DNA from: Bacteroidales bacterium
GTDB taxonomy: Bacteria; Bacteroidota; Bacteroidia; Bacteroidales; FEN-979
Assembly: GCA_017882335.1 (NCBI GenBank)
Contig: JADGPR010000001.1
Span: 27,172-91,171 of the forward strand
Reading direction: 5' to 3'
Length of the DNA: 64,000 nucleotides
Every line of letters starts with the position of its first letter. Position 1 is the stretch's first letter. The translations under genes were made by a program, and so were the position numbers. Under the pieces are notes generated by a model. The model was given only the letters and a program-made list of their open reading frames with translations. It was not told the origin of the DNA and made no database searches. Positions 16,598-40,857 of the stretch are shown piece after piece.

Positions 16598-16668
16598 TAT
16601 AGGCAGGAAAATTCAAGCCACCCAGAAGTAAAATAATCTATTCACCAAGATCCAATGTGAAGGGATCA

Positions 16669-19589: not shown

Positions 19590-19903
19590 TTTGGGTTGTT
19601 TTTTATGTTTTTCTGTTTATTGAATTAATTACGCCGTAAAATTACATCGGGAATTCATGCTGCGCAATTGCTGAAATCCGTAAAATGAAATAGCGGAAAC
19701 CCGCTATATGTTTCCACAAAAAAATTTCTACTCTATTGATTATTAATTACATAATGATTTGACTTGGCGTACAGGTTACACGCCATGAAAAGATTTTTTT
19801 CGACCGATTTTTTAAAAAGAGGAAGGAAGGTGTGCTTTTTTTGTTGAAAACTAACTGGGTTTTGTGAATAAAATGCAGGCAGCGGGGTGATGAAAAAAGG
19901 AGT

Positions 19904-24439: not shown

Positions 24440-25129
24440 ATGATATTAATTGATGATTTTATTTCTCTGCTCTTTCCCAGAATATGTGCAGCCTGCGGGA
24501 ACAGCCTCTGGAAACAGGAAGAAACGGTTTGCCTTTCCTGTGAATTTCATCTTCCCCGGACAAACTTTCATCTTTCCCTTGAAAATCCCGTTAGCCGGTT
24601 GTTCTGGGGAAGGACGAACCTGGAAAGTGCGTCTGCCTACGTCTATTTTAATAAAGGGAACAGAGTTCAACGGCTAATCCACCAATTGAAATACAAAGGG
24701 CGCAAGGATATCGGGATTTATCTGGGCCGGCAATATGGCCAATACCTGAGGTATTCTCCTTTTTTCCATACGGCTCAATTAATCGTGCCCGTGCCGCTTC
24801 ACACCAAAAAACTTATGCAAAGAGGATATAACCAGAGCGAACAATTTGCAATCGGATTGGGAGAATCCATGAAGATTCCGGTAGATTCGGATGCCATCTG
24901 CCGCAGAAAAGAAACAGAAACCCAGACCAAAAAATCACGGTTTCGGCGCTGGCAGAATGTGGCAGAAGTTTTTGAAGTAAAAGATCCTGGGTCGCTGGAA
25001 ATGAAACATGTTCTTCTTGTTGATGATGTGATCACTACAGGTGCGACCATTGAATCCTGTATCCGGGCACTTTCCCCGATCCACGGGATCCGTATAAGCG
25101 TGGCAACAATTGCAGTGGCTCCTGCTTAA
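24440..25129 (+). CDS. ComF family phosphoribosyltransferase-domain protein
   Basis: N-terminal zinc-finger Cys pairs (CAACG...CLSC) and a PRT motif (VLLVDDVITTGATIE). Confidence 0.8.
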   Translation: MILIDDFISLLFPRICAACGNSLWKQEETVCLSCEFHLPRTNFHLSLENPVSRLFWGRTNLESASAYVYFNKGNRVQRLIHQLKYKGRKDIGIYLGRQYGQYLRYSPFFHTAQLIVPVPLHTKKLMQRGYNQSEQFAIGLGESMKIPVDSDAICRRKETETQTKKSRFRRWQNVAEVFEVKDPGSLEMKHVLLVDDVITTGATIESCIRALSPIHGIRISVATIAVAPA

Positions 25130-27717
25130 CGTTTCCCGCCAAGGACACAGGTCTTCTTTAATTGCCTGGTTTTTCCTTCCGGCTTTAACAATTCAATATA
25201 AAAAATGTAAATCCCGATGGGCGATTTCTGGTTCTTGTCATCCCGGCCATCCCAGATAATTCCATCTTCTGTTGAGAGCAACCTGTTCTTTGTAAGACAA
25301 CGGATCCTGTTGCCCCCGGCATCAAAAATGGTGATATTGACCAGGTAACCCGGATCGTCCAGGTTAAACCCTACCATTAAAACATCGTCCTTACCGTCAT
25401 CATCCGGTGTAAAAACGAATGGCAAGAGGCTCACCACATCCACCCCTGGATCCATCCGTAAAAACTCGGAATTCCGGTACCCGGGCGTGGCAAACCCGCA
25501 ATTTTCTGACGCGGAATGCCAGTTGGCAAAATCCCCCGAAGGAAGCGAAGGATTTAACCGTTCCAGTGAAACGCCGTCGGTTGTGGTCAGTAAATCAGAG
25601 TACATCACTGAGGAATAGTAAACACGGTCAATGAGGGTTCCGTCATTTTCCCGGGCTAAAACAACAGTTCCCTTATCTCTGTCAATGGAAGGCAGTGCTG
25701 TCATCTGGACAAAGGCATCCGGATTGGGACAATTATATCTTTTCAGGATATCACTAGGTTCGTTTGTCAATATGGAAAAATCACCGGGGAAAGAGAAAAA
25801 GCCGCTTTCCGATATAGGTTTTAAATCGGTTACCAGGACCTGTATGCTATCAAACAAACCCAATGCAAGTTCCTGCAAGTTTAGTGTCTTATCGGAACGA
25901 TTGAAGATTTCAATGAATTTTTCACCATCTGTTGCTGGGTTTGCAAGGATCTCATTGATAACAAGGTCGCCTGGGGAAATAGAATCTGGAAGCCCGATTC
26001 TGACATGCCGGACAGTATCCAGCAGGTTTCCCACACAATCGGATGGCGGGTTCTTACAGGATAGTGAATAAATATGTTTTTTTTTCAATGTTTTAGGAAG
26101 GTCTAAATAAGCGGAACTATACGCAGGTGGAACCGCAGAGATTCCGATGGGGGTATATCCATTTTCGTCAAGCTGCCATTGGCTCGCATCGTTGAGACTC
26201 AGGCTGTCCATTGATTCAGAAAATACGATTTCAACGGTGGTATCGGAAATGATCCGTGCCCGTTTCAGGTAAGGCGGAAAATTGTCCGGATTAGACGCCT
26301 TAACAGAATTGATCGCCCCGGGGGTTCCTCCTTTTGAATCAACCGAGGCCTTCCAGTTATCCAAGCACCCGCAAGGATTCTCCGTATCAATCATTTCGAG
26401 CGACCAGCCCCCGTTTTCTTTCAACGGATTTTGGTACAAACCGGTAGAATAGGTCACCGAATGGATCACTTTCCCGGAATTATTCTTCAGAACCAGCGTG
26501 GAACCTTCATTTGAGAGTGTTGAATAGGATGTAAAGAGGTCAACACCCGGTCCATAAAAATTCATCATTATTCCTTTCGTCAGGATCAGGTATCCATGAG
26601 GAGAAATGCTGACCCCGGGAAAGGTTTTTGCAGAAGAACCATATTCAAAGGTCCATCCACCCAGGTTAACAGGAAACCGGGTGCGGTTATAAAGTTCTAC
26701 ATATTCACTTTCCGGCAAACCGTTCACCGGTTCAGGATCAGCCATGATCTCATCCATGATAACATCCCGCGCTTTTACCTGGTAATTGGAAAAGGGAACC
26801 GCCGTTTCCTGCATTACATTCCCCGCCAGATCCAAAATGCCATAGATTATGAGGGTATCAGAAACTCCATCCGGGAAAGGTTGCTGAAAAGTCAACACGA
26901 CTTTTTCTCCATTCACAGGATCGGGCATTGCCAGAAGCGGGTTCCCATTCATCTTGGAATAATAATGATGAATGTCCTGGGCCGAGGTGACGATGACACT
27001 TTCCGAAAACGAAACCACCAGTGTGGTGCTATCTTTTAATGTCAGGGAATCTACAGTAGGAGGAAGGGTGTCAACCCGGATAGAACCCACATAAAAATCG
27101 TCGAAGTAGAATTTGGTCGAATTGCTTGTTGTATAATGGCAATAAATCCCAAACCACGAGGAGGAAGGAGTGCCCGAATCCACACAATGGCCCTCTTCCA
27201 GGTAATTCGTACCGCCGGTGTTATCCGCATAGAGCGTCCATGTCCCGGTGGAATCATGGATCATTTTAAACCGGAAGACATTGGTCGAATGATTTGTGCA
27301 GGAAAAATTACCCTGGAAAAGTTTTTCCACCTGGGTTCCGGTTTGCCTGATGAAGGAAATACTGTCGGTGCTTCCTCCAACTTGAAGAAAGTAACCATTT
27401 ACAGGGCCTTCCAGATTTATATTGTCTGAAACCAGGTACACCCTTGAATAATTATTTGCCGAGGTATTGAATGACAGTTTCACCCAAAAGCTCCATTCGG
27501 TTCTTTCAACCCGGGAGTTGGCCGTAACCAGCACTGAGGTGTCAGCACCAGAAGCGGAAAGATGAAGTTGTCCGGCTGCATTTACTTCAAATTTCCCGGT
27601 GTCGCCTTCCCACTGGGGATTCTGTGTAAAATTGCCATCGGTAAAATCATCGCTGAACTGGGCTTCTGAATTAAATGCCAGGCTAAACAGTACCAGGATA
27701 AAAAAATGTTTTTGCAT
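25126..27717 (-). CDS. Large secreted protein with two lamin-tail (LTD) domains and a T9SS type-B-like C-terminal domain
   Basis: Signal peptide MQKHFFILVLFSLAFNSEAQ. LTD-like blocks are MDEIMADPEP...EYVELYNRT and INEILANPATDGEKFIEIFNRS. The C-terminus FTPDDDGKDDVL...IYIFYIEL resembles gliding-associated CTDs. Confidence 0.65.
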   Translation of the reverse strand: MQKHFFILVLFSLAFNSEAQFSDDFTDGNFTQNPQWEGDTGKFEVNAAGQLHLSASGADTSVLVTANSRVERTEWSFWVKLSFNTSANNYSRVYLVSDNINLEGPVNGYFLQVGGSTDSISFIRQTGTQVEKLFQGNFSCTNHSTNVFRFKMIHDSTGTWTLYADNTGGTNYLEEGHCVDSGTPSSSWFGIYCHYTTSNSTKFYFDDFYVGSIRVDTLPPTVDSLTLKDSTTLVVSFSESVIVTSAQDIHHYYSKMNGNPLLAMPDPVNGEKVVLTFQQPFPDGVSDTLIIYGILDLAGNVMQETAVPFSNYQVKARDVIMDEIMADPEPVNGLPESEYVELYNRTRFPVNLGGWTFEYGSSAKTFPGVSISPHGYLILTKGIMMNFYGPGVDLFTSYSTLSNEGSTLVLKNNSGKVIHSVTYSTGLYQNPLKENGGWSLEMIDTENPCGCLDNWKASVDSKGGTPGAINSVKASNPDNFPPYLKRARIISDTTVEIVFSESMDSLSLNDASQWQLDENGYTPIGISAVPPAYSSAYLDLPKTLKKKHIYSLSCKNPPSDCVGNLLDTVRHVRIGLPDSISPGDLVINEILANPATDGEKFIEIFNRSDKTLNLQELALGLFDSIQVLVTDLKPISESGFFSFPGDFSILTNEPSDILKRYNCPNPDAFVQMTALPSIDRDKGTVVLARENDGTLIDRVYYSSVMYSDLLTTTDGVSLERLNPSLPSGDFANWHSASENCGFATPGYRNSEFLRMDPGVDVVSLLPFVFTPDDDGKDDVLMVGFNLDDPGYLVNITIFDAGGNRIRCLTKNRLLSTEDGIIWDGRDDKNQKSPIGIYIFYIELLKPEGKTRQLKKTCVLGGKR

Positions 27718-27821
27718 ATCGTTTTTACCCCTTAATCGGAGAATATCGAAAAGGTAATACATCAGATTCGGATTTCTTCAATTATCTTTGTTCCTAATAA
27801 AAATAAATTTCCCGGGAATTC

Positions 27822-28893: not shown

Positions 28894-28907
28894 TTGACAA
28901 ATATCAA
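28894..28907. promoter_or_regulatory. FNR-type box TTGAC-AAAT-ATCAA upstream of the Crp/Fnr gene
   Basis: Matches TTGAT-N4-ATCAA at 9 of 10 positions. It sits inside a 19-bp block (taattgacaaatatcaatt) that recurs identically at 29750-29768. Confidence 0.6.
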
Positions 28908-29004: not shown

Positions 29005-29697
29005 ATGGCGAGATTTAAACAGTCTAATAATTGTGTTGATTGTAAATGTAAAAGTTCGATCTTTAAGGCGCTTTCCAGCACTGAGTTGGATCTGATAAAT
29101 AACAACCGTTATGAAGTCAGTTTCAGAGCCGGAGAGATGATGTTTAAGCAGGGAACTCCATCCCCGCATTTTCTCTGCCTGACCACGGGTCTTGCCAAGC
29201 TTTACATCGAAGGATACGGAAAAAATCTGATCCTTTCACTTGTGAAACCGGTAGAATATATTTTGGGACCCGGCATTTATGTCGACAACCGGCATCATTA
29301 TTCAGCATCAGCAGTTGAAGATTCCACTGCCTGCCTGGTTGATGTAACCTCCTTTAAACAGATAATGCGTAGTAATCCGGATTTTTCGGATGAGTTCATC
29401 CGCCGGATCAGTATTATGACTATATTTAATTTTGAACAGTTTATCAGCCTCACACAAAAACAGATGAATGGCCGGATTGCAGATGCCTTGTTTTACCTCT
29501 CCGACCAAATATATGAAAAAAACCCGTTTGAAATGACCATCTCACGCCAGGACCTGGCCGATCTTTCGGGCATGTCAAAAGAAAGCGCCATCAGGATTCT
29601 TAAAGAATTAAAAGACGAAGGTATCCTGAGTGTCAATGGTAATATTCTTCATATCCTGAATCCTCAACAGTTGAAGAAGATCAGTATAACCGGATGA
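29005..29697 (+). CDS. Crp/Fnr family transcriptional regulator with an N-terminal Cys cluster (FNR-like)
   Basis: cNMP-binding-like beta-roll plus a C-terminal HTH (ISRQDLADLSGMSKESAIRILKEL). The recognition helix keeps the E-x-x-x-R pattern of the FNR E-xx-SR helix. Cysteines are C10, C13 and C15 (NNCVDCKC), plus C58 and C110. Confidence 0.85.
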   Translation: MARFKQSNNCVDCKCKSSIFKALSSTELDLINNNRYEVSFRAGEMMFKQGTPSPHFLCLTTGLAKLYIEGYGKNLILSLVKPVEYILGPGIYVDNRHHYSASAVEDSTACLVDVTSFKQIMRSNPDFSDEFIRRISIMTIFNFEQFISLTQKQMNGRIADALFYLSDQIYEKNPFEMTISRQDLADLSGMSKESAIRILKELKDEGILSVNGNILHILNPQQLKKISITG

Positions 29698-29752: not shown

Positions 29753-29808
29753 TTGACAAATATCAATTATCGGTTGATTTTTATCGTTAATTAATTAACA
29801 AATCTCAT
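29753..29808. promoter_or_regulatory. Three FNR-like boxes phased at 21 bp upstream of the cytochrome cluster
   Basis: TTGAC-AAAT-ATCAA at 29753-29766, TTGAT-TTTT-ATCGT at 29774-29787 and TTAAC-AAAT-CTCAT at 29795-29808. Only the first is near consensus. Confidence 0.5.
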
Positions 29809-29904: not shown

Positions 29905-29946
29905 ATTGTGAAATTATTAACCAAAATTGTGAAATTATTAACCAAA
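29905..29946. repeat. Perfect 2 x 21-bp tandem repeat (attgtgaaattattaaccaaa) in the leader of the first cytochrome gene
   Basis: 29905-29925 and 29926-29946 are identical. The repeat ends 12 nt before the ATG at 29959. Confidence 0.95.
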
Positions 29947-29958: not shown

Positions 29959-31266
29959 ATGAAGACGATTACTAAACTGTTCCTTTTCGCCGGAATGTTC
30001 ATTGCAGTTGCAGGAATATTTTTCTCCAGCTGTACAAAGGAGGGGCCCCAGGGCGCATCCGGGACCAATGGAAAAAACGGCGTTGATGCAAATGAAACAT
30101 GCAAACAATGCCATGCACCTTCAATGGTTGACAGGGTAGCCACAGAATTCGAGATGTCGAAACACAGCTGGGGCGTTGCCGAATTCGAAGAAGCCGGAAA
30201 CGGAGCTTGTACTTCCTGCCATTCACAAAAAGGGTTCATTTATGTTTGCCAGAACAACGTTCCCTCAACATTTACTCTTACCGCTGGAAAATATGTAAAT
30301 GATTATACACCGGACGCCGCAAACCAGTTTGGGGCTATCGGTTGCTGGACATGTCACAGCAGTTTACATACTACTTATGGTGTTGCAGATTTGGCATTTA
30401 CCACAACGGCCCCGGTTTCCATGACCATGTGGGCCGGTGCATCTGGAAAGGACATAAACCTTCCTGCCGACAGTGGCGTAAGTAACATGTGCGCAAAATG
30501 CCACCAGCCGCGTCCGATTACTCTCGGATACGATCCGACCGGAAGAGTTCTTAACTATGATGATTTAAAGAATAATCCGAGCTCGATTGCTTATGACAGC
30601 ACCCTCGGTAACGGAAATACAGGTGTAAAACCTTCCTACAGGCTTGGCGTCCATTACGGAACCGTCGGAGCAATCTATGCCGGTGTTGGTGGTATTGAAT
30701 TCCCTGGTCTTTCATATAGTAATTCTCCACATACAACCCAGGCTGCTTGCCCCCAATGCCATATGGCATCACCAATGACCGGTATTGCAGGCGGACACTC
30801 CTTCAGTATGAGAAACTCGAAAGAAACTCCGTTGGGCGCATCGACAACCTGGAATTTCAACGGTTGTAACGTCACCGGTTGCCACGCCGACATCCCTATC
30901 GACAAAAACACTCCCAAGTGGGCTACCACAAGGGCTAACATAAAGCTGTTGCTCGACAACCTGGCTAATAAAATCAATGATATCGGACAGGGTCATAAAA
31001 TCCTTCATGCAGATGCAACCTCAGCGAATCTCTGGGCCGGTATAGCCACTGGAAACTGGGATGGATATCTTGATTTTTATGATGCTGCCTCAAATCCCGG
31101 CGGATACTGGAAATTGACAACCACTCCGAAATTCCCCACTCTCACCAATGCCCAGCTGGGTGCTATCATCAACTTCCAGCTCTGCCTGAGAGAGTACAGC
31201 CTTGGTATTCACAATACCTCTTACACAACTGCGCTGTTAACCAACTCTATTAATGCGTTGCCGTAA
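29959..31266 (+). CDS. Multiheme c-type cytochrome lipoprotein (5 CXXCH + 1 CX4CH)
   Basis: Lipoprotein-type signal MKTITKLFLFAGMFIAVAGIFFSSC. A collagen-like GPQGASGTNGKNG linker follows. Heme motifs are CKQCH, CTSCH, CWTCH, CAKCH, CPQCH and CNVTGCH (30865-30885). I prefer the ATG at 29959 to the GTG at 29908 used by the ORF track. Confidence 0.85.
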   Translation: MKTITKLFLFAGMFIAVAGIFFSSCTKEGPQGASGTNGKNGVDANETCKQCHAPSMVDRVATEFEMSKHSWGVAEFEEAGNGACTSCHSQKGFIYVCQNNVPSTFTLTAGKYVNDYTPDAANQFGAIGCWTCHSSLHTTYGVADLAFTTTAPVSMTMWAGASGKDINLPADSGVSNMCAKCHQPRPITLGYDPTGRVLNYDDLKNNPSSIAYDSTLGNGNTGVKPSYRLGVHYGTVGAIYAGVGGIEFPGLSYSNSPHTTQAACPQCHMASPMTGIAGGHSFSMRNSKETPLGASTTWNFNGCNVTGCHADIPIDKNTPKWATTRANIKLLLDNLANKINDIGQGHKILHADATSANLWAGIATGNWDGYLDFYDAASNPGGYWKLTTTPKFPTLTNAQLGAIINFQLCLREYSLGIHNTSYTTALLTNSINALP

Positions 31267-31285
31267 TCATGGTCTACGTGTCAGG

Positions 31286-31319
31286 AAAAGGCTTCAGAAA
31301 ATTTCTGAAGCCTTTTTTT
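31286..31319 (+). terminator. Strong intrinsic terminator after the first cytochrome gene
   Basis: ggcttcagaaa (31290-31300) pairs perfectly with tttctgaagcc (31302-31312). A T7 tract follows, and an A-tract upstream allows bidirectional function. Confidence 0.7.
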
Positions 31320-31384
31320 CGACATTCAGTACAAATATGTTATTTTTACTTTCCTTATTATTGAAAATTGTTAAAACTTTCATC

Positions 31385-31762
31385 ATGCAAAAGAAAATTA
31401 TTGGTAGTTTGATTTTATTCCTTGTAGGAATGTTGATTTTTACCTCTTGTGCTAAGGACACCCTTGTACCTGCAGGAAGCAGTATCGATCCAAGCAAGAA
31501 AATCAGCTTTAAGGACGACATTCAGCCGATCTTCACAGCCAGTTGTTTGGGTTCTTTTTGCCATTCGGGCGGTGTAGATCCGAATCTTCAGGCAGGAAAA
31601 GCCTACAGCGACCTCCAGGCGGGGTTTATCAATATAGCGACTCCGGCACAAAGCATTATTTATACAGAAATGGCGCCCGGTGGAGGAATGTCAAGTCATT
31701 GCACGGCAACAGATGCTGATTTTGTTCTTGCCTGGATCACGCAAGGTGCGAAAGACAATTAA
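31385..31762 (+). CDS. Small lipoprotein with a CX4CH motif (possible heme-binding, PSCyt-like segment)
   Basis: Signal MQKKIIGSLILFLVGMLIFTSC. Contains DIQPIFTASCLGSFCHSGG (motif at 31544-31564). The ORF-track start at 31253 would run through the terminator hairpin, so I rejected it. Confidence 0.65.
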   Translation: MQKKIIGSLILFLVGMLIFTSCAKDTLVPAGSSIDPSKKISFKDDIQPIFTASCLGSFCHSGGVDPNLQAGKAYSDLQAGFINIATPAQSIIYTEMAPGGGMSSHCTATDADFVLAWITQGAKDN

Positions 31763-31821
31763 TCCGGTCATTCGTGTTCATTAAAGTCTAAATTAATATG
31801 CATAAACCTATACTATAAACT

Positions 31822-32700
31822 ATGAAAAAATTTCTTTTTAGCCTGGTATTTTTCTTAACCGGCATTGGCATCGTTTTTGCTCAGGATTCCATCCCTGCCC
31901 AAACAAAAAAACCCATGGTGAAAGCTCCTTTTGAAAGTGGCTATTTCATTGATGACCAAACGGTGGCCTTGCCTCCCGCACATTCACTGCAACTGGTTAT
32001 CCAGCACCGGTTCGGGACTATCCAGAATGGGTTTACCGACCTTGCAGGTATCTGGGGCGGTTCCAATATCCGTTTCGGGCTTGATTTTACAATCACAAAA
32101 AATGTCCTGATCGGAGTTGGCACAACCAAGAACAAACGGATCCAGGACATCCAACTGAAATATACATTTCTGCATCAGCGCAAAGGTGGGTTTCCTTTTA
32201 CCATGGGGCTTTATGGAAACATGGGGATCAATTGTCTGAACAAAACGGCTTTTGGCACTGCCTTTAAATCGCGCGACCGCTTCTCCTATTTTGGCGAGCT
32301 GATGATTGCAAAAAGATTCTGCAAAGAGTTTTCCGCCCAGCTTGGAATTGCCTGGGTTCATTACAACATCGTGGATTCTACTGTCACAAAGCGGGATTGG
32401 CATGTTAACGGAATGCACAATGACAATCTCCAGATTTCCGGAATCGGCCGTCTGAAGATCAGTCCGCAGACCTCCATCATTGCCACCTATTCTCAATCTG
32501 TTTTTACTTACGTAAACAAGAAGCCTTGGCCGAATGCCGGATTGGGAATCGAGGTTTCCACAAGCACCCACGCATTCCAGATCTTTCTTGCTGCAGCGCA
32601 GGGTATTGTTCCGCAGGAAGTGGCTTTTTACAACGAAAATAACCCCTATAACGGAATGATCTTGATTGGGTTCAATATTACCCGATTGTGGACCTTTTAA
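31822..32700 (+). CDS. Putative outer-membrane beta-barrel protein (possibly DUF5777-like)
   Basis: Signal peptide MKKFLFSLVFFLTGIGIVFAQD. Alternating hydrophobic strand patterns are present, and the C-terminus ends ...ITRLWTF (terminal aromatic, OMP-like). The family name is from memory only. Confidence 0.55.
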   Translation: MKKFLFSLVFFLTGIGIVFAQDSIPAQTKKPMVKAPFESGYFIDDQTVALPPAHSLQLVIQHRFGTIQNGFTDLAGIWGGSNIRFGLDFTITKNVLIGVGTTKNKRIQDIQLKYTFLHQRKGGFPFTMGLYGNMGINCLNKTAFGTAFKSRDRFSYFGELMIAKRFCKEFSAQLGIAWVHYNIVDSTVTKRDWHVNGMHNDNLQISGIGRLKISPQTSIIATYSQSVFTYVNKKPWPNAGLGIEVSTSTHAFQIFLAAAQGIVPQEVAFYNENNPYNGMILIGFNITRLWTF

Positions 32701-32738
32701 TTATTTATCAATTATTTAACCTTAAAACATCCGAATCA

Positions 32739-33167
32739 ATGAAAACAACACAGAAAGCGATTACCCTACTCGTAACGATGATTATCGCAGTAGTATTTGT
32801 ATTTGGGAATACGGTCAATGCTCAACAGGCAAAAGCAAAACCATGGCCTGTTCCCGACAAGAACAAAACGATGAAAGCAGCTGTTAACCTGAAAGACGCA
32901 TCCGTGATCAGCAGCGGAAAAGAAGCTTGGGCAAAGAACTGCAAATCCTGCCATGGTGCCAAAGGTTTAGGCGACGGCCCCAAGGGCGCTTCACTAAAAA
33001 CCTTCCCGGGGGATTTTTCCGGAGCAGCTTTCCAGGGTTCGACAGATGGCGAATTGTTCTTCAGAACCAATGTTGGACGCGATGAAATGCCAGGCTACGA
33101 AAAGAAAATCCCCGATGCAAATGAGCGTTGGGCGCTTGTGGCTTACATGCGTACCCTTAAGAAATAA
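32739..33167 (+). CDS. Monoheme class I c-type cytochrome
   Basis: Signal/anchor MKTTQKAITLLVTMIIAVVFVFGNTVNA. Contains a single CKSCHGAKG motif and a distal Met candidate in GRDEMPGY. The ending WALVAYMRTLK is typical of small cytochromes c. Confidence 0.85.
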   Translation: MKTTQKAITLLVTMIIAVVFVFGNTVNAQQAKAKPWPVPDKNKTMKAAVNLKDASVISSGKEAWAKNCKSCHGAKGLGDGPKGASLKTFPGDFSGAAFQGSTDGELFFRTNVGRDEMPGYEKKIPDANERWALVAYMRTLKK

Positions 33168-33183
33168 TAGATTTCTTTGCGGC

Positions 33184-33227
33184 AAATTGGGTGTTTTTCG
33201 AGTACCAAAAACACCCAATTTATTTTA
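33184..33227 (+). terminator. Strong intrinsic terminator after the monoheme cytochrome gene
   Basis: aaattgggtgttttt (33184-33198) pairs with aaaaacacccaattt (33207-33221). The loop is cgagtacc and the downstream sequence is T-rich. Confidence 0.7.
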
Positions 33228-33267
33228 ACAGGTTTTTCTATCATCAATATTACCCGAAGATCATCGT

Positions 33268-34299
33268 ATGGTTAAGAAATATAATAACCGGCCGGCCTGG
33301 ATTGTTTTGATTCTCGTCATCTGCTCAGCGATCGTTTACTCTCTCAGCTATTCGGCCAATTCGAAATCCGTTCGCACCGACACGACAACTGCCCAAAAAG
33401 AGAACACACCTCCTAAAAACAACCAGTTTTCCAATCATAAAAACGCCGGGGAGAATGAAAACTGTTTTAAATGTCATGGGCAGTCAAAGTATTCTTACGA
33501 AAACAGCGAATCCAAGAAAACGGCTACAAAAAAAATGTTTGTTGAACTCATCATTGACCGGTCGGTTTTTTATGAATCTAATCACCGCGAGTTTAAATGT
33601 ATCGATTGCCATTCTGAAGATTATAACACCTTCCCGCACCAGGGAAACCTCCGCATGGAAGCAAAGCCAAATTGCCTCGATTGCCATGGGGGTGATGAAA
33701 AATATGCCAAGTTCCATTTTGAAAATATTGAAAAGGAATTCCAGGAAAGTGTGCATTCGGAAAAACACAGCCAAGACTTTACCTGCTGGATGTGCCATAA
33801 TCCACATACTTATAAAATCAATGCCCGCCCCAATGAAAACATAAAGCAAACAATCGCTTACGACAATGCCATCTGTTTGAATTGTCACGGGAATTTATCC
33901 AATTATCAGTTGTTGACTGATAAAGCCAACCCGAATCTTCTTACGAAGCATGACTGGATTCCCAACCAGAAGTTGCATTTTCTTTCTGTACGCTGCGTGG
34001 AATGTCATACAAAAAAGATCAACGACAGTACATTGGTTGCGCATAAGATCCTCCCAAAGAAAGAGGCGGTTAGGAATTGTGACCAGTGTCATTCATCCAA
34101 TTCCGTATTAATGGCTGCCCTGTATAAATATAAGATCAAAGAGGTACGCAGTGCAAAAGGGTTTTTCAAAGGAGTGATCACCAATGATTCCTATGTGATC
34201 GGGGCAAACAGAAATTATTATCTGAATGTTTTGAGTCTCGTTATCGCTGGTTTTGTGATCCTGGTGATCATTATCCATGCATTTCTAAGAACATTGTAA
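33268..34299 (+). CDS. Heptaheme c-type cytochrome with N- and C-terminal TM anchors
   Basis: Heme motifs are CFKCH, CIDCH, CLDCH, CWMCH, CLNCH, CVECH and CDQCH. The N-terminal helix is AWIVLILVICSAIVYSL and the C-terminal helix is VLSLVIAGFVILVIIIHAF. Confidence 0.85.
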   Translation: MVKKYNNRPAWIVLILVICSAIVYSLSYSANSKSVRTDTTTAQKENTPPKNNQFSNHKNAGENENCFKCHGQSKYSYENSESKKTATKKMFVELIIDRSVFYESNHREFKCIDCHSEDYNTFPHQGNLRMEAKPNCLDCHGGDEKYAKFHFENIEKEFQESVHSEKHSQDFTCWMCHNPHTYKINARPNENIKQTIAYDNAICLNCHGNLSNYQLLTDKANPNLLTKHDWIPNQKLHFLSVRCVECHTKKINDSTLVAHKILPKKEAVRNCDQCHSSNSVLMAALYKYKIKEVRSAKGFFKGVITNDSYVIGANRNYYLNVLSLVIAGFVILVIIIHAFLRTL

Positions 34300-34321
34300 C
34301 TGTTTAATTTCAAATAAACCC

Positions 34322-34942
34322 ATGACAGAAGAAAAAATCTATTTGTACCCGGTTTGGATAAGACTTTGGCACCTTCTGAATGCCATTCTTTGTCTGATTC
34401 TTATCATTACGGGTATCAGCATGCAATTCTCCAATCCAAAGTTCCCAATGATTCGTTTTGATGTGGCGGTTTCCGTTCATAATATTGTGGGGATCATTTT
34501 GTGTGTTAATTATCTCCTTTTCTTTCTGGGGAATATAACCACCCATAACGGTAAATATTACAAACTCATCTTTCCCGGCTTGTTCAGTCGCCTGATAACC
34601 CAATTCAGGTATTACACCAGGGGATTATTTAAAGGTGAAGCGGCGCCTTATCCACTAAATTCAGAAAGAAAATTCAATCCCCTCCAACAGGTCACATATG
34701 TTGGCTCCATGTATGTCCTGTTCCCTATCATCATGATTACCGGATGGGCACTGATGTACCCGGAGGTCATCCCTGCCCGTTTTGTTTGGTCCAGCGGACT
34801 TCATCTCACCGATCTTTTTCATATTACGGCAGCATTCCTGGTTTCATTGTTTATGTTTATTCACATCTATTTCTGCACGATTGGGAAAACGCCGCTCAGC
34901 AACTTTCTGAGTATGATAGACGGCTATCATGAAAGTCATTGA
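34322..34942 (+). CDS. Diheme b-type cytochrome, HydC/FdnI (Ni/Fe-hydrogenase cytochrome b / b561) family
   Basis: 206 aa with four TM helices. Conserved His residues are in RLWHLLNA, VSVHNIVG, LFHITAAF and FMFIHIYF. Confidence 0.75.
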   Translation: MTEEKIYLYPVWIRLWHLLNAILCLILIITGISMQFSNPKFPMIRFDVAVSVHNIVGIILCVNYLLFFLGNITTHNGKYYKLIFPGLFSRLITQFRYYTRGLFKGEAAPYPLNSERKFNPLQQVTYVGSMYVLFPIIMITGWALMYPEVIPARFVWSSGLHLTDLFHITAAFLVSLFMFIHIYFCTIGKTPLSNFLSMIDGYHESH

Positions 34943-34986
34943 TCCTCCTTTTATTAAAACATTAACTCTTCTTTAATTTTATTCCT

Positions 34987-35946
34987 GTGGAAGATAACAA
35001 CGACAACAAAAAAAGTTCCCGAAGGCAATTTCTTAAGAAGGGCCTGATTGCAGGGGCAGGAGTGGTTGCCGGTGGCAGCCTGCTGGCAGCTTATGTTGAT
35101 AAATCAAAACCAACATCTGGAGAGAAGGTAAAAGTCCTGACAACGGAAGGCGAGTTGGTGGAGGTAGATAAAGCCCTGATCCATTCTCCCCGGGTTTCTA
35201 TTGAAGAATCCCATAAAGGGATCCCGGGCAGAAAATTTGTGATGGTCATCGACCTGGCCAAATGTAAAAATGCACGAAAATGTGTTGAGGCCTGCCAGAA
35301 AGGCCATCATCTTCCCAGGAGCCAGGAATTCATGAAGGTGTATCTTTTACAGGATTCTGAAAAATCGGCACCCTATTGGTTTCCAAAACCTTGTTTTCAT
35401 TGCGACAACCCGCTTTGTGTGAGCGTTTGCCCGGTGGGTGCAACTTATAAAAGGAGCGACGGGATCGTTTTAATTGATAACCAACGGTGTATTGGGTGTA
35501 AATTCTGTATGACCGGATGCCCTTATTCCACCCGTGTTTTTGCATGGAAAGATTATCCCGAATACGCCGAAGACAAAGAACCGTATTCGCCAGAAGCCAG
35601 CAGTCCCGGGAAAGAGGGAACCGTGTCAAAATGCGATTTTTGCCCCGACCTTGTTCGCATAGGCAAACTGCCTTATTGTGCGCAAAATTGCCCCATGGGG
35701 GTGATCTATTTTGGCGATATTGATGAAGATACCGTCACCAATGGGTCTGAGACATTGCGTTTCAGTGAGCTGATCCGTGACCGTTCCGGATACCGTTACC
35801 TCGAAGTACTTGGCACACGGCCAAGCGTTTATTATCTTCCGCCTGTTGAACGTCAGTTCCCTGTAGAGAGCGGTTTTAAAGATCTCGAGGAGAGTGTTAA
35901 GAATAGATTTAAAAATACCCCCTACGGTAAGACCCACAAACTTTAG
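34987..35946 (+). CDS. Tat-exported 4Fe-4S ferredoxin-type subunit (NrfC/PsrB/HmcB-like)
   Basis: GTG start. Twin-arginine signal SRRQFLKKGLIAGAGV. Four Cys groups are present: CKNARKCVEAC, CFHCDNPLCVSVCP, CIGCKFCMTGCP and CDFC...CAQNCP. Confidence 0.85.
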   Translation: MEDNNDNKKSSRRQFLKKGLIAGAGVVAGGSLLAAYVDKSKPTSGEKVKVLTTEGELVEVDKALIHSPRVSIEESHKGIPGRKFVMVIDLAKCKNARKCVEACQKGHHLPRSQEFMKVYLLQDSEKSAPYWFPKPCFHCDNPLCVSVCPVGATYKRSDGIVLIDNQRCIGCKFCMTGCPYSTRVFAWKDYPEYAEDKEPYSPEASSPGKEGTVSKCDFCPDLVRIGKLPYCAQNCPMGVIYFGDIDEDTVTNGSETLRFSELIRDRSGYRYLEVLGTRPSVYYLPPVERQFPVESGFKDLEESVKNRFKNTPYGKTHKL

Positions 35947-35948
35947 CC

Positions 35949-37292
35949 ATGGAAAATAAAGACACCAAGGAAAAACTGCTGCGGGAATTTGCCCCACAGC
36001 TTGAAAAGACAAGCCCCGCAACACTGGTTTGGATCCTGTTCCTATTGGGAGTGATCGCCTGGGGCGTCTATGCTTTTGTGGCCCAGGTCACCAAGGGCCA
36101 TATCGTCACCGGTATGCGCGACAATGTCGTCTGGGGAATCTATATTGTAAATTTCATCTTCTTTATGGGGATGAGTTACGCCGGGGCTATTATCTCCGGA
36201 ACACTGCAATTGTTCCGTACAGAATGGAGAAAACCCATCATCCGGATGGCGGAGTACCTTGCTATTATTTCCCTTCTGATCGGGCCCGGTTATATTTTGC
36301 TCTGCATCGGCCGTCTTGACCGGCTTCATTACCTTGCACTCTTCGGCAGGATCCAGTCACCCATCACCTGGGACGTCATTGCGATCTCCACCGATATCTT
36401 CGGATGTCTTATCTTTTTATACCTTTCTATCCTCAGGGATATCGCCAGCCTGAGGGATTTTTCTGAGTTGAAAATTCCGGCTTGGAGAAAAAAAATATAT
36501 TCCATGTTGGCACTGGGATATACCGGACTGCCCGAACAGGTAAAACGCCTTAGAAGAGCTACGGACATTATGGCCACCATGGTCATCGCCATTGCGATCA
36601 TCGTGTATTCTGTTTTGGCCTGGATCTTCAGCGTAACCTTGCAACCTGGTTGGCACAGTACCATTTTCGGCCCCTATTTTGTGATTGCCGCCGTTTATTC
36701 CGGTACCGGCGTTTTGATCATTGCCATGTGGGTATTCCGGAAAGTTTATCGTCTTGACCAATATATCACCCGAAAGCATTTTGTTGCAATGGGGGTTTTA
36801 ATGGTCGTTCTGGCTGCACTGTTTGGATATTTTACCTTTAGCGATTACCTGACAAAATGGTATGGTTCAGAAAAAAATGATGAGAGCCTCATCCGGATCC
36901 TTTTTACAGAATATTACTGGCCGTTCATTTTCTCTAACTACATCGGGGTTTTAATTCCACTGCTTGTAATAGGGATCCCGAAACTGAGAACAATAACCAA
37001 CATTACCCTTTCGGCGCTGATTGTCATTGTGGCCCTTTGGTTCAACCGTTACCTGATCGTGATTCCAACACTTGAATCGCCTTATCTCCCGATCCAGGAT
37101 TCACGCCCAGAATGGGCAAATTACGCGGGTACCTGGGTCGAATATGCACTCATGGCCGCAGGGGTCGCTCTTTTTTGCCTGATGTTTACAATTGCCTCTA
37201 AATTTGTACCGGTCATGAATGTTTCCGAGATGTCAGAGACACCTAAAACAGAATCCTCAGAATTGTTTAAAACAGAAGAATCTTTGTTGTAA
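35949..37292 (+). CDS. NrfD/PsrC family polytopic membrane (quinone-interacting) subunit
   Basis: 447 aa with about 10 TM helices. It starts 3 nt after the Fe-S subunit stop, which is the typical NrfC-NrfD pairing. Confidence 0.8.
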   Translation: MENKDTKEKLLREFAPQLEKTSPATLVWILFLLGVIAWGVYAFVAQVTKGHIVTGMRDNVVWGIYIVNFIFFMGMSYAGAIISGTLQLFRTEWRKPIIRMAEYLAIISLLIGPGYILLCIGRLDRLHYLALFGRIQSPITWDVIAISTDIFGCLIFLYLSILRDIASLRDFSELKIPAWRKKIYSMLALGYTGLPEQVKRLRRATDIMATMVIAIAIIVYSVLAWIFSVTLQPGWHSTIFGPYFVIAAVYSGTGVLIIAMWVFRKVYRLDQYITRKHFVAMGVLMVVLAALFGYFTFSDYLTKWYGSEKNDESLIRILFTEYYWPFIFSNYIGVLIPLLVIGIPKLRTITNITLSALIVIVALWFNRYLIVIPTLESPYLPIQDSRPEWANYAGTWVEYALMAAGVALFCLMFTIASKFVPVMNVSEMSETPKTESSELFKTEESLL

Positions 37293-37330
37293 CAACCCTT
37301 TTTACGCCAGGGCTAAAAACCTTCAGTAAT

Positions 37331-38245
37331 ATGCGAACCCAAAACAAAATCCGGATCATTTTCTTTTTCCTGCTGTGTTTCTGCAAGCTGGTTACTTCTG
37401 CACAGAATAAGAAGGATTCAGTTACAGAGATCACGCCGTCCATTACCTTTACTTACCTCAATTCAAATGATACCATCATCCTGACCGCAAACATCTTTGA
37501 CAAGAAAGAGCAGGGGGTCTTCGCAATTAAAAATGCCATAATTGTGTTTTCCGCCTCGGGAGATAAAGAAACCCGGAACCTCGGACAGGCTAAGGCAGAT
37601 GAAGAAGGAAACGCAATCCTGAAACTCCCCGTTGCAACAGCGATACCCAAGGATAAAGATGGCAAAACCATCTATACTGCAAAATTCAATGGAAAAGGCA
37701 AATTCCAGCCCGCCATAGAAACCTTCAGCGCTAAACTTGCCAGGATCACCGTCAATTTTTCGAAAGAAGATTCTTTACATTTTATCCTTGTCACAGCTAC
37801 ACAGGTTGACTACAAGGGTAGTGTCAAGCCAATCCAAAAAGAAAAAGTCGTCGTTTATGTGCCGCGGTTGTTTACCCTTCTGAAGATCGGCGAAACCGAT
37901 CTTGATGAGGCAGGAACGGGAAAAGTGGAATATACAGGGAAGCTTGTCGGCGACTCCCTTGGAAATATTATGGTGATTGCCCGGATTGAAGAAAACGATA
38001 AGTTCGGGAATGTTCAGGGACAATCATCGATTTCCTGGGGCATCCCGAAACAATATTATCTTGCGGAAAGACCAACCAGGGAATTATGGACACCTATTGC
38101 GCCAATCTGGATGATCGTAACACTGATCACAATGCTGACAGGGGTTTGGGCACATTATATTTATGCCGTCATCCAGCTGATTAAAATCAAACAGATAAGT
38201 AAAAAAAATCCAGGTAATCCGGAAAATAACAACAAATTTACCTGA
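37331..38245 (+). CDS. Hypothetical periplasmic beta-sandwich protein with a C-terminal TM anchor
   Basis: Signal peptide MRTQNKIRIIFFFLLCFCKLVTSA. Two similar beta-rich modules end in ...ADEEGNAILKLP and ...LDEAGTGKVEYTG. The C-terminal helix is IAPIWMIVTLITMLTGVWAHYIYAVI. Confidence 0.6.
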   Translation: MRTQNKIRIIFFFLLCFCKLVTSAQNKKDSVTEITPSITFTYLNSNDTIILTANIFDKKEQGVFAIKNAIIVFSASGDKETRNLGQAKADEEGNAILKLPVATAIPKDKDGKTIYTAKFNGKGKFQPAIETFSAKLARITVNFSKEDSLHFILVTATQVDYKGSVKPIQKEKVVVYVPRLFTLLKIGETDLDEAGTGKVEYTGKLVGDSLGNIMVIARIEENDKFGNVQGQSSISWGIPKQYYLAERPTRELWTPIAPIWMIVTLITMLTGVWAHYIYAVIQLIKIKQISKKNPGNPENNNKFT

Positions 38246-38390
38246 ACGTCAGGCAGAATACATTTGAGCATTTGCCTGAAATTTTGAACGGGAAGAATTT
38301 CTTTTCTTAATTCTAATTTGGAAATCCGGCAAATATCATGTTATTTCGTAAATTTCAACATAACTAGTAAATTCTTAAATCGTTTCCAAT

Positions 38391-39884
38391 ATGAAAATGC
38401 CAAAATCTGTTTCCAATTGGATCAGCATCATTGGGGCTATCTTTGCCATTAACAGCTTCATCCTCATTATTATTCTCTTTATCGAGTCGCTGCTTTCCAG
38501 TCATGATAATCCATACAACGGGATATTTACTTACATCATCCTTCCCGCCATAATGGTGATCGGCTTGATCCTGATTCCAATCGGAATGTTTGTGAAACGC
38601 CGCAGGAAAAGTAAGGAAGGCGAACCCAAATGGCCGGTACTGGATATGAACAGCAGCCGGCAACGTCATCGTTTATTATTGTTCTCGATTTTTACATTTC
38701 TGTTCCTGATTGTTTCGGCAGTAGGAAGTTACGAGGCTTTTAACTTTACAGAATCTATTCCCTTTTGCGGCAAGCTTTGCCATACTGTGATGGAGCCGGA
38801 ATATGTCACCTATCTTCATTCTCCCCACGCCCGCGTTGCTTGTGTGGAATGCCATGTAGGAGAGGGCGCTGACTGGTATGTAAAATCAAAGCTGTCGGGT
38901 CTTTACCAGGTATACTCCGTTTTGTTCCACAAGTATCCACAACCAATTTCAACGCCGATCAAAAATCTTCGTCCAGCACGTGAAACCTGTGAACGCTGTC
39001 ATTGGCCGGAAAAATTTTATGCCCCGAAACTGGATAACAGAAGGACCTATCTTACCGACAGCCTGAATAGCGAATGGAATGTTTCCATGATGATGAAGAT
39101 CAGTCCGAACTACAACACGATGGGCCTTACCGCCGGAATTCATTGGCATATCAACAAAGATATGCGGATCGAATACATTGCATCTACAAAAGACAGGGAA
39201 TCCATACCCTGGGTGAAATTCACAAATCTGAAAACCGGCGATGTTCAGACCTTCCAGGATACAGACAATATGCTGACGCAAAAAGCCATCGATACACTCG
39301 AGCACAGGATCATGGATTGCATGGATTGCCATAACCGGCCCTCTCATTCTTACAAATCAGCCCCGGTTTTTGTAGATGAGGGAATGATGAAGGGGGAAAT
39401 ACCGACAGAATTGCCTTTCATTAAAAAAGTTGCAATGAACGTCCTTAAGGGGCCGTTTACAAATAAGGATTCTTCTTTACGTTATATCCGAGACAGCATC
39501 TACAATTTTTACAAGATAAAATTCCCCGGCATCTATGCGGGCAAAAAATTCCTGATCGACAAAGCCATTGCAGGCATTGAGAACGAATTTTCACTCAACA
39601 TCTTTCCTTACATGCGTGTGACATCAAGCAAATATCTGAACCATATCGGGCATCTCGAATCCGATGGTTGTTTCCGTTGCCATTCCGATCGGCATAAATC
39701 CACAAAGGGGAAAGTTATTTCCAAAGACTGCGACTGGTGCCACTCATTCATTTCCCAAGGGCCATCAAACAATTTGCAATACTCTATTGTCAATAAAACC
39801 ATGGAATTTGTACATCCGGTAGATGTGAAAAACAACTGGAAAACGTACTTCTGTACTGAGTGTCATCGTACCCTTTATCCATAA
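38391..39884 (+). CDS. Membrane-anchored multiheme cytochrome, NapC/NirT-related and ImcH-like (6 CXXCH + 1 CX3CH)
   Basis: Three N-terminal TM helices. Heme motifs are CGKLCH (38766-38783, CX3CH), CVECH, CERCH, CMDCH, CFRCH, CDWCH and CTECH. Confidence 0.8.
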   Translation: MKMPKSVSNWISIIGAIFAINSFILIIILFIESLLSSHDNPYNGIFTYIILPAIMVIGLILIPIGMFVKRRRKSKEGEPKWPVLDMNSSRQRHRLLLFSIFTFLFLIVSAVGSYEAFNFTESIPFCGKLCHTVMEPEYVTYLHSPHARVACVECHVGEGADWYVKSKLSGLYQVYSVLFHKYPQPISTPIKNLRPARETCERCHWPEKFYAPKLDNRRTYLTDSLNSEWNVSMMMKISPNYNTMGLTAGIHWHINKDMRIEYIASTKDRESIPWVKFTNLKTGDVQTFQDTDNMLTQKAIDTLEHRIMDCMDCHNRPSHSYKSAPVFVDEGMMKGEIPTELPFIKKVAMNVLKGPFTNKDSSLRYIRDSIYNFYKIKFPGIYAGKKFLIDKAIAGIENEFSLNIFPYMRVTSSKYLNHIGHLESDGCFRCHSDRHKSTKGKVISKDCDWCHSFISQGPSNNLQYSIVNKTMEFVHPVDVKNNWKTYFCTECHRTLYP

Positions 39885-39945: not shown

Positions 39946-40428
39946 ATGAAAACCAAAAAAATTCCCTTAAAGGCAAGAAAAGCACTTGCAGAGGGTAATA
40001 TCCGGGAAGCCAATGTGCTTTTGGGTGATTATTATTCTTTACAGGGAACGGTAATTGAAGGGAGACAGATGGGAAGAATCCTGGGTTTTCCTACAGCAAA
40101 TCTCAAATTGAATGAACTTTCACCTTTGTTTCTTGCGAACGGAGTCTATGCAGTGAAAATAAAACATCATACGGCGCTATACAACGGAATGGCCAACATC
40201 GGTATCCGTCCGACCTTTGAACAGCACGAATTAACAATAGAAGTTAACCTGTTTGATTTTTCTGATGATCTCTATGGGCATGTTCTAACCCTGTTTTTCA
40301 TTGACCGGATCAGGGATGAGATGAAATTTCCCAACCTCGAGGCACTAAAACACCAGATTTCCCTTGATAAAAATCGGATACAGGAATTATTGTCCGGAAG
40401 GAACCAGCCGGATCCCTACACCAAGTAA
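39946..40428 (+). CDS. Riboflavin kinase (RibF C-terminal domain only; no FMN adenylyltransferase domain)
   Basis: Contains GTVIEGRQMGRILGFPTANL...GVYAV...NIGIRPTF...LTIEVNLFDF...LYG...FIDRIRDEMKF, which is the RibF kinase module. The protein starts in the equivalent of the interdomain linker. Only 61 bp separate it from the upstream stop. Confidence 0.8.
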   Translation: MKTKKIPLKARKALAEGNIREANVLLGDYYSLQGTVIEGRQMGRILGFPTANLKLNELSPLFLANGVYAVKIKHHTALYNGMANIGIRPTFEQHELTIEVNLFDFSDDLYGHVLTLFFIDRIRDEMKFPNLEALKHQISLDKNRIQELLSGRNQPDPYTK

Positions 40429-40857
40429 TGCAGTGACCTGCAACCGGGGAACAAGGGTTTCTATTTCAATCCGTAACATCCCTTTCTTATCTATCCGCAG
40501 ACCCTTCTTTAGGGCAATGGATGCTGTGCATGAATCCTGGTTACAGTTGCCGGTAAACCTTCCGGTCTTATCCTTTAATAAGAATTTGTACTCCTTGATC
40601 CTTTCTTCACTGGAAGGTGTGGTCATGATCATATTGAACTCAAGATTATCAAACTCATACTTGGGGGTATGATTGGCAAAGAAAAAAACATCATAGCGCT
40701 TGTCAATATCCAGAATGGGGATATCAAACCTGATTTTTTCGAAACGGTTCCATGTCTGGTCATTGAATTTATGATAACGGATAATTTCATTGTTTTTTTT
40801 GCACCCCGAAAGGATGAGAAGAAAAAGTAAACCGTAAACTAAAGCCTTATTATTCAT
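40387..40857 (-). CDS. gldH: Gliding motility lipoprotein GldH-like
   Basis: Lipoprotein signal LLFLLILSGC. The pattern W-x-F-x-I-x-F-x-I...RYDVFFFANHTPKYEFDNLEFNMIMTTPSSEE...KDKTGRFTG matches my recollection of the GldH family. Confidence 0.55.
   Translation of the reverse strand: MNNKALVYGLLFLLILSGCKKNNEIIRYHKFNDQTWNRFEKIRFDIPILDIDKRYDVFFFANHTPKYEFDNLEFNMIMTTPSSEERIKEYKFLLKDKTGRFTGNCNQDSCTASIALKKGLRIDKKGMLRIEIETLVPRLQVTALLGVGIRLVPSGQ

Follow-up and report, generated by a model that had tools for sequence, protein, structure and literature searches.

A modular multihaem cytochrome cluster of uncultured Bacteroidales and its candidate role in extracytoplasmic electron transfer

What might a set of multihaem cytochromes and quinol-interacting membrane proteins reduce, or oxidise, when no recognisable catalytic subunit is encoded beside it? 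The question is raised by a cluster of ten genes, numbered g1 to g10, in a 64-kb stretch of DNA (hereafter the window) from an uncultured freshwater Bacteroidales bacterium. From the gene content of the cluster and of related loci, we hypothesize that it may encode a modular, anaerobically induced chain for extracytoplasmic electron transfer, similar to that of Geobacter and including a novel outer module, a reading to which we give about an even chance of being correct. The cluster and its control region comprise the following features.

28894..28907, plus strand: FNR-type box TTGACAAATATCAA, upstream of the Crp/FNR gene; a probable autoregulation site
29005..29697, plus strand: Crp/FNR-family regulator of 230 amino acids (aa), directly upstream of g1; Cys10, Cys13, Cys110
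29753..29766, plus strand: FNR-type box TTGACAAATATCAA, about 200 bp before the g1 start codon
29959..31266, plus strand: g1, hexahaem lipoprotein; lipobox Cys25, five CXXCH and one CX4CH motif
31385..31762, plus strand: g2, small monohaem lipoprotein cytochrome; lipobox Cys22, one CX4CH
31822..32700, plus strand: g3, predicted outer-membrane beta-barrel of 292 aa; DUF5777 (PF19089, E=3e-64), with the aromatic end ...LWTF
32739..33167, plus strand: g4, secreted monohaem class I cytochrome c; PF00034 and PF13442, one CXXCH, no lipobox
33268..34299, plus strand: g5, heptahaem cytochrome c of CbcA type; seven CXXCH, hydrophobic segments at residues 12-30 and 321-339, the latter a C-terminal transmembrane (TM) segment
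34322..34942, plus strand: g6, four-TM dihaem cytochrome b of CbcB/PhsC/HydC type; Ni_hydr_CYTB (PF01292, E=4e-26), His17/53/167/181
34987..35946, plus strand: g7, NrfC/PsrB-type Fe-S protein of 319 aa, predicted to be exported by the twin-arginine translocation (Tat) route; Tat motif SRRQFLK, four Fe-S motifs, Fer4_11
35949..37292, plus strand: g8, NrfD-family membrane subunit with about ten TM helices; PF03916, E=2e-30
37331..38245, plus strand: g9, signal peptide, two immunoglobulin (Ig)-like sandwiches and a C-terminal TM helix; AlphaFold2 (AF2) model with a predicted local distance difference test score (pLDDT) of 81
38391..39884, plus strand: g10, predicted heptahaem quinol oxidase of the ImcH family, 497 aa; three TM helices (13-31, 49-67, 95-113) and a NapC/NirT/NrfH-like region

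The original prediction, made from the sequence of the window, had listed ten plus-strand open reading frames. All ten are present, and Pfam and NCBIfam matches together with a motif scan bear out the gene-by-gene descriptions. The multihaem content that it ascribed to the cluster stands; its figure of about 20 c-type haem sites does not, since the motif count is 22. The three kinds of quinol-interacting module that it named, a cytochrome b, an NrfD-like protein and a NapC/NirT-like protein, were all found, and it was right that a catalytic subunit is missing: no molybdopterin, sirohaem or copper enzyme is encoded among the cluster genes or the flanking genes of the window, and no molybdopterin or other catalytic partner was seen in any related locus that we examined. 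Two descriptions need correction in part. In g5, said to be anchored at both ends, the C-terminal TM segment is present, but the hydrophobic segment at the N terminus could be a signal peptide that is cleaved off and not an anchor. In g7, said to hold four Fe-S clusters, the four motifs and the Tat motif are present, but the cysteines number 15 and not 16. The first Fe-S motif of g7 reads CX5CX3C, where the usual form is CX2CX2CX3C; with 15 cysteines for four clusters, one cluster may therefore be [3Fe-4S] or use a non-cysteine ligand.

Which known respiratory proteins do the inner-membrane components resemble? ImcH of Geobacter sulfurreducens (GSU3259) is an inner-membrane quinol oxidase serving high-potential extracellular acceptors, and it shares with g10 its length, TM helices, haem motifs and haem pocket. 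Members of the ImcH family have 495-519 aa, three N-terminal TM helices and a CX3CH motif beside the membrane domain in addition to six CXXCH motifs, and homologues from outside Geobacter are 31.5-49% identical to Geobacter ImcH (PMC6295460). In g10 the CX3CH motif (CGKLCH) stands at residue 126 and the CXXCH motifs at residues 151, 200, 310, 427, 447 and 488; C126, C130 and H131 are invariant in 120 homologues. E121, K167 and Q173 are likewise invariant in these 120; position 182 holds the Tyr of g10 (Y182) in 103 and Phe in 17. Together with H131, these residues correspond to the haem-1 pocket of G. sulfurreducens ImcH, H137, E127, K173, Q179 and Y188 (bioRxiv 10.1101/2023.05.03.539133), at a constant offset of -6, which was taken from the published residue numbers and not from an alignment with GSU3259. 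The published sequence features of ImcH in length, TM helices, haem motifs and pocket residues are all found in g10, and a role as quinol oxidase is predicted for it. It differs from ImcH in its setting, a Bacteroidales host and a position at the end of a larger cluster, whereas its close homologues are solitary.

The pair g5-g6 has the architecture of CbcA and CbcB. In G. sulfurreducens, CbcBA (Cbc5), which works near the low-potential limit of respiration, likewise pairs a heptahaem cytochrome c that has one C-terminal TM segment with a neighbouring four-helix dihaem cytochrome b, and the architecture described for CbcA is that of g5 (bioRxiv 10.1101/2023.05.03.539133). It is in architecture alone that we liken g5-g6 to GSU0594/GSU0593. 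CbcBA is regulated by sigma-54/BccR, whereas the regulator neighbouring g5-g6 is of Crp/FNR type and not BccR; also unlike Geobacter CbcBA, g5-g6 are followed by NrfCD-type genes. CbcB homologues are usually annotated as thiosulfate-reductase-like, and cbcBA has been reported in Bacteroidetes (Joshi et al., bioRxiv 10.1101/2021.04.15.440034). Indeed, the best named match of g6 is a thiosulfate reductase cytochrome b (NCBIfam PRK15006, E=5e-54); we nevertheless rejected a PhsABC thiosulfate reductase, because the PhsC score of 183.5 bits lies under the cut-off of 204 and no molybdopterin PhsA is present. The proposed likeness to inner-membrane modules of Geobacter therefore holds for the ImcH features of g10 and for the architecture of g5-g6, with the amendment that CbcBA, rather than the CbcL first suggested, is the better match for the latter. 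For the same reasons the claim that no named complex matches was wrong for these parts, g10 agreeing with the ImcH family definition and g5-g6 with the CbcA/CbcB architecture. The inner-membrane half of the system is recognisably Geobacter-like and partly anticipated in the literature, and the system is not categorically new.

The remaining membrane module, g7-g8 with g9, has a composition of its own. Among solved structures, the best match of g7 is PsrB (2vpw_B, E=5e-26) and the best matches of g8, both over the full length, are ActC subunits of Alternative Complex III (6f0k_C, E=6e-53; 6btm_C, E=2e-49). That complex combines an ActC-type 10-TM subunit with a four-motif Fe-S subunit and cytochromes alongside, as does the g4-g8 set. 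Its ActB, however, carries a molybdopterin-like B1 domain and has about 950-1040 aa, and the 319 aa of g7 match only its C-terminal Fe-S part; it also has a second NrfD subunit, ActF, and a monohaem lipoprotein, ActE, whereas the cluster has one NrfD gene and a g4 that has no lipobox cysteine. Conversely, the cluster has a cytochrome b and the Ig-domain protein g9, which Alternative Complex III has not. The comparison with Hmc/Nhc/Ohc-type complexes of sulfate reducers could not be upheld: the models of the Dsr, Qrc and Hmc complexes all scored under their family cut-offs (score/cut-off: DsrO 168/200, DsrP 81/350, QrcC 124/400, QrcD 36/570, HmcB 75/420), g8 is nearer to ActC, and the window holds no DsrK-, HmcF- or QrcB-like gene. 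Since Act subunits are lacking and the Dsr, Qrc and Hmc scores fall short, we regard g7-g8 as a quinol module of NrfCD type with a distinct composition. It can be compared with Geobacter Cbc4 (CbcSTU), in which a cytochrome is combined with a 4x[4Fe-4S] protein and a membrane subunit (bioRxiv 10.1101/2025.04.14.648717). The g9 family has no Pfam or NCBIfam match; its 302 homologues are all unnamed, and a Foldseek search with the g9 model returned only generic Ig/Fn3 tandems. The invariant residues of g9 cluster in the C-terminal TM helix (residues 250-276) and include His275 in a W-x-H-Y motif, which may point to a specific contact within the membrane, perhaps with NrfD-like g8. We regard g9, with its two Ig domains, as a new, lineage-restricted accessory membrane subunit.

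Is the cluster inherited as a whole? With a profile of g1 homologues we collected the best 80 genome loci and mapped onto them the ten window proteins and the regulator. All 80 come from metagenome-assembled genomes (MAGs) of uncultured Bacteroidales/Bacteroidota, and many of their record names refer to samples such as those from Lac Pavin, Swedish lakes, ELA, Danish soils and waters, peat and groundwater. In 46 loci, here called well-flanked, the sequence extends 8 kb or more to each side of g1. Among these 46, the numbers with a given gene near g1 are as follows.

Regulator 38, g2 34, g3 35, g4 30, g5 35, g6 35
g7 23, g8 21, g9 19, g10 12

The ten genes, taken in the original prediction as a unit, are therefore not a conserved set: all ten occur in just two of the 46 loci, both from Lac Pavin MAGs that are the closest relatives, and the commonest form, in 15 of the 46, has nine genes and no g10. 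Some loci consist of the regulator and g1 alone and others of g1-g2-g3-g5-g6 only; in still others g7-g9 are replaced by a CbcL-type fusion of 940 aa, with 19 CXXCH motifs and a cytochrome b domain, followed by a g10 homologue. In locus L078 this fusion occupies 14715-17537, and a 163-aa c554-like multihaem cytochrome (19229-19720) comes after the imcH homologue; the 940-aa CbcL/MtoC-type fusion is also present in L071, L065, L054, L037, L034, L035, L051 and L073. In several loci g2-g9 lie on the strand opposite to g1. The set that recurs with g1 is thus the Crp/FNR regulator, g2-g3 and g5-g6, while g4, g7-g9 and g10 are variable, and the inner-membrane modules are interchangeable around g1. 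Divergence within the cluster is also uneven. Between the window and loci L004/L014, g7, g8 and g10 are 85-86% identical and g1, g2, g6 and g9 just 61-64%, which suggests faster evolution or replacement of the latter four.

The control of the cluster can be read from its upstream region. The 14-mer TTGACAAATATCAA occurs exactly twice in the window, and these two copies are also the sole exact matches to TTGAYNNNNATCAA. Of 82 related loci, 50 have a TTGAY-N4-RTCAA-type box ahead of g1, at -117 to -338 and mostly at -130 to -210; the background frequency of such boxes is 0.02 per 450 bp. In the 38 well-flanked loci that have it, the regulator gene adjoins g1. The orthologue of the regulator in L004 has the domains cNMP_binding and HTH_Crp_2, and Cys10, Cys13 and Cys110 are kept in 59-61 of 62 homologues of the regulator. 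This three-cysteine set is compatible with redox or gas sensing by the regulator; it is no proof of an FNR-type cluster. Given the FNR-type box, anaerobic induction is to be expected, and the anaerobic FNR-type control that had been proposed is supported by the box upstream of g1 and by its retention in related loci. The further proposal, that all ten genes lie behind FNR boxes, stands as far as the boxes go and not as a single operon, given that g9 and g10 are separated by a gap of 145 bp and that g10 is independent elsewhere. Just before the g1 start codon, a 21-bp unit, TTGTGAAATTATTAACCAAAA, is perfectly duplicated in tandem (29906-29946), lengthening the 5' leader. We considered this repeat as a conserved operator and rejected it: the closest relative, L008, has one copy and others have none. 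The single copy in L008 indicates that the duplication in the window is recent and local.

We now turn to the outer part of the cluster, g1 to g3. The six haem motifs of g1 and seven further histidines are invariant across an alignment of 30 homologues. Right after the lipid-anchor cysteine, residues 25-45 form a collagen-like GXY stretch, which varies from about two to eight triplets among homologues and matches Pfam Collagen at E<0.1 in 18 of the 30 family members; it could serve as a spacer or a trimerisation stalk. We regard g1 as the anchor gene of the system and as its candidate terminal reductase. The second lipoprotein, g2, has its haem site as CXXCH in 47 of 52 homologues and as CX4CH in five, the window and its closest relatives having CX4CH; the g2 family is one of genuine cytochromes, and the weak matches of g2 are to LIC11213-lipoprotein and Cytochrome_CBB3 (Pfam/NCBIfam). 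Wherever a related locus has both g2 and g3, the two adjoin (34 of 34).

The barrel family of g3, DUF5777, has 1006 cluster representatives, and nearly all of the best 150 are stand-alone barrels of about 280-315 aa. Sequence comparison of g3 with the PDB gave only noise and no solved relative, and our literature search found no publications on DUF5777. The idea that g2-g3 are a split form of a fused cytochrome-barrel is unsupported: the four longer DUF5777 members that we checked are a tandem barrel or have short extensions with no Pfam domain, and none has a cytochrome fusion. In placing a barrel gene beside genes for lipoprotein and periplasmic c-type cytochromes, g1-g4 recall the Mtr and Pcc conduits and Cyc2. 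The likeness goes no further than this arrangement. MtrCAB and Pcc/ExtABCD combine a large barrel sheath with a multihaem MtrA/OmaB partner, whereas the window has a DUF5777 barrel and no MtrA-like decahaem protein; MtrB-type sheaths are far larger than the 292 aa of g3. In Cyc2 the cytochrome and the porin are fused, and g3 is not fused to a cytochrome. As far as we have seen, g1, g2, g3 and g9 belong to uncharacterised families confined so far to uncultured Bacteroidota.

Distant relatives of parts of the cluster are found in genomes enriched on an anode. In the study of Ouboter et al. (2021, PMC8258643), Bacteroidetes_1, a MAG of class UBA10030, rose 39-fold on the anode and contained a seven-gene cluster, putatively for extracellular electron transfer, described as 'previously uncharacterized'. 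We find by BLASTP that its protein JNFKJAOJ_00301 is a homologue of g1: identity is 28% along the whole length (E=1e-30), and the alignment matches the lipobox, the collagen-like stretch, the five CXXCH and one CX4CH and a C-terminal helix motif. The ImcH-like JNFKJAOJ_00296 is 42% identical to g10 (E=1e-152, BLASTP), and protein 00295, a CbcL-like fusion, has a relative in the 940-aa protein of the sister loci. There are also differences: the CbcL-like fusion stands in place of CbcBA and NrfCD, the other multihaem cytochromes differ from those of the window, the barrel has 438 aa and no BLAST match to g3, and BLASTP detected no homologues of g2, g4, g7, g8 or g9 in the seven-gene cluster. On the same anode a Zoogloea MAG rose 720-fold, with a cluster that contains MtrB/PioB-like and DmsE-like genes (PMC8258643). 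This cluster includes a g5 homologue (32% identity, E=1e-50) and, adjacent to it, a b subunit, 00645, that is 38% identical to g6; its DmsE-like decahaem cytochrome has no match among the window proteins (BLASTP).

How could these parts work together? From the gene content, motifs, family assignments, conserved box and modular co-occurrence that we observe, we infer the order and direction of electron flow, the location of g1 and g2 and the acceptor. The Crp/FNR-type regulator would bind the TTGAY-N4-RTCAA box and turn on g1 and the genes behind it. Menaquinol would then be oxidised by up to three parallel modules, g5-g6, g7-g8 with g9, and g10, which probably serve acceptors of differing redox potential, as in Geobacter. 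Electrons would travel by way of the periplasmic haems of g5 and g10 and of soluble monohaem g4, a candidate periplasmic electron carrier, to an outer-membrane set that consists of g2 with its fixed partner barrel g3 and of g1 as terminal reductase. The most likely acceptor would be Fe(III), Mn(IV), humic quinones or another extracytoplasmic oxidant. ImcH homologues have been found only in Fe(III) reducers (Zhong and Shi, PMC6295460), and for this reason the reducing direction is favoured. Taken together, interchangeable modules of the type known from extracellular electron transfer (EET) in Geobacter, a constant outer set, the lack of a catalytic subunit and anaerobic-type control make a branched EET-like chain the most economical explanation. 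A more specific version is that g1-g2-g3 form a Bacteroidota-specific outer-membrane electron route, fed by whichever quinol oxidase a lineage carries (CbcBA, CbcL-like, ImcH, or NrfCD with g9), in which g2 sits in or on the barrel g3, as an unfused counterpart of Cyc2, and passes electrons to g1 on its variable collagen-like stalk. This joint proposal we consider speculative, and its being right in all parts unlikely.

Several points weigh against an EET-like chain. Cytochromes of the class I monohaem type, to which g4 belongs, are often of high potential and typical also of Fe(II)-oxidising chains. The barrel of g3 spans only about 250 residues and has no solved relative, so that the route across the outer membrane is not accounted for. 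The link to the anode is one of enrichment alone, by way of a distant homologue at 28% identity from another class of Bacteroidota. As to surface export, the signal of Bacteroidetes surface-exposed lipoproteins (LES) is C-X-K-(D/E)2 or an equivalent run of acidic residues at positions +2 to +6, and KD by itself was not sufficient (PMC5080379). From the lipobox cysteine onwards g1 reads CTKEGP and g2 CAKDTL, with one acidic residue each. The tested minimal motif is absent from both, and without the acidic pair surface exposure is not predicted for either, although the LES rule was derived from Capnocytophaga and may not transfer to this host. Finally, marginal NrfA-family scores in some g1 homologues leave room for an enzyme acting on a soluble substrate, and this brings us to the most serious of the alternatives. 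Here g1 would be a haem-only periplasmic reductase, distantly related to NrfA or to octahaem enzymes and fed by the quinol modules as NrfH or NrfBCD feed NrfA. It would reduce or detoxify a small N- or S-compound, for example nitrite, hydroxylamine, NO, sulfite, tetrathionate or polysulfide, and this substrate would enter through g3. Pfam Cytochrom_C552 (PF02335) is matched at E<0.1 by 24 of 30 g1-family members, and four homologues that we scored reach 26.7-30 bits, above the gathering score of 24.1, over about 165-200 residues; g1 of the window itself has no match to PF02335 at E<0.1. NCBI names one g1 homologue nitrite reductase, and when the g1 model is searched with Foldseek, each of the top nine matches is an NrfA or an octahaem nitrite reductase. 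These matches have E-values of 0.2-9, however, and the AF2 model, at pLDDT 56, is too poor for haem-ligand assignment. The CXXCK active-site haem of NrfA is not found in g1, the g1-family profile retrieves no solved relative from the PDB (no NrfA at E<=1) and gives only 7 bits on E. coli NrfA (hmmsearch), and hhalign aligns the family with E. coli NrfA over 43 columns in a different register, with a probability of 36%. We therefore reject g1 as a member of the NrfA family; the link is unproven, and we keep it only within this alternative. Against the alternative we also count that the seven invariant histidines outside the motifs suffice for six bis-His haems, and that the recurrent neighbours are of the ImcH, CbcBA and CbcL types, known from EET and not from oxyanion reductases. 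In its favour, several loci have g1 and the Crp/FNR gene by themselves, in the manner of a self-contained enzyme gene, and at about 250 residues the barrel is of a size that fits a solute channel. The missing acidic pair in g1 and g2, the small barrel and the class I g4 keep a periplasmic reductase in play as a serious rival, even if we judge it unlikely.

The preferred outward chain must also be set against a flow in the opposite direction, in which electrons from Fe(II), reduced humics or a partner cell would be taken up through g1, g2 and g3, then g4, and delivered to menaquinone-reducing cytochrome b and NrfD modules. A small monohaem cytochrome paired with a barrel is reminiscent of Cyc2, the fused cytochrome-porin of iron oxidisers, class I monohaem carriers such as g4 are at home in oxidising chains, and many of the source lakes named in the records are iron-rich. 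CbcL/MtoC-type and CymA-type quinone modules, moreover, occur in reducers and oxidisers alike (PMC6295460). The restriction of ImcH homologues, so far, to Fe(III) reducers speaks against uptake, as does the FNR-type box, which means anaerobic induction in a neighbourhood with no terminal oxidase or nitrate reductase; Bacteroidales are, besides, mostly organotrophs. We consider inward flow a weaker rival than the periplasmic reductase and improbable. Distinct from both is the view that the genes form no single system, and that a Crp/FNR-g1 unit, a g2-g9 respiratory unit and a stand-alone imcH came to lie together here in one lineage. It draws on homologues of g10 at 62-74% identity that are solitary genes in unrelated neighbourhoods of other genomes, one of which, a 5.27-Mb chromosome, keeps the nine-gene cluster at another place; on the gap before g10; and on the loci in which the regulator and g1 occur without the other genes or g2-g9 run opposite to g1. 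Against chance assembly speak the presence of g2-g3 and g5-g6 within 8 kb of g1 in 34-35 of the 46 loci despite rearrangements and inversions, and that of ImcH-type genes near g1 in 12 of the 46, in unrelated arrangements, and again in the distant UBA10030 cluster. Nor did we find a convincing plus-strand terminator in the intergenic gaps of the cluster. We regard independent units as rather unlikely, though somewhat less so than inward flow.

The genes that flank the cluster have no respiratory function, and no terminal oxidase or nitrate reductase lies nearby. They encode aspartate-semialdehyde dehydrogenase, a flavokinase, GldH, a histidine kinase and housekeeping proteins (RNase R, an S46 peptidase, tRNA synthetases and ABC-F). 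The flavokinase gene (39946-40428), which follows the cluster, encodes 160 aa with no FAD-synthetase domain, and the convergent gldH lipoprotein gene (40387-40857) overlaps it by about 40 bp; this flavokinase-only gene is a conserved downstream neighbour across the closest clade, whether or not g10 is present. Upstream of asd, on the minus strand (25126-27762), lies a gene for an 878-aa secreted protein, and this synteny is kept in the closest clade. Its homologues in L005 and L006 have LTD/Big_5/CHU_C-type domains, and a link to the cluster is improbable.

Bacteroidales abound in anoxic lakes, peat, groundwater and sediments, and fermentation is the way of life usually ascribed to them. If the preferred outward chain is correct, a widespread, FNR-controlled chain of ImcH, CbcBA and CbcL type would let them pass respiratory electrons to iron, manganese or humics, and the attribution of carbon and metal cycling in anoxic habitats would change. 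Within the family of NrfD complexes, g7-g8-g9 would represent a new subunit composition. The outer part, g1-g2-g3, which is unlike the Mtr or Pcc conduits, would offer a testable candidate for electron transfer to or across the outer membrane of Bacteroidota, a phylum with a lipoprotein export biology of its own.

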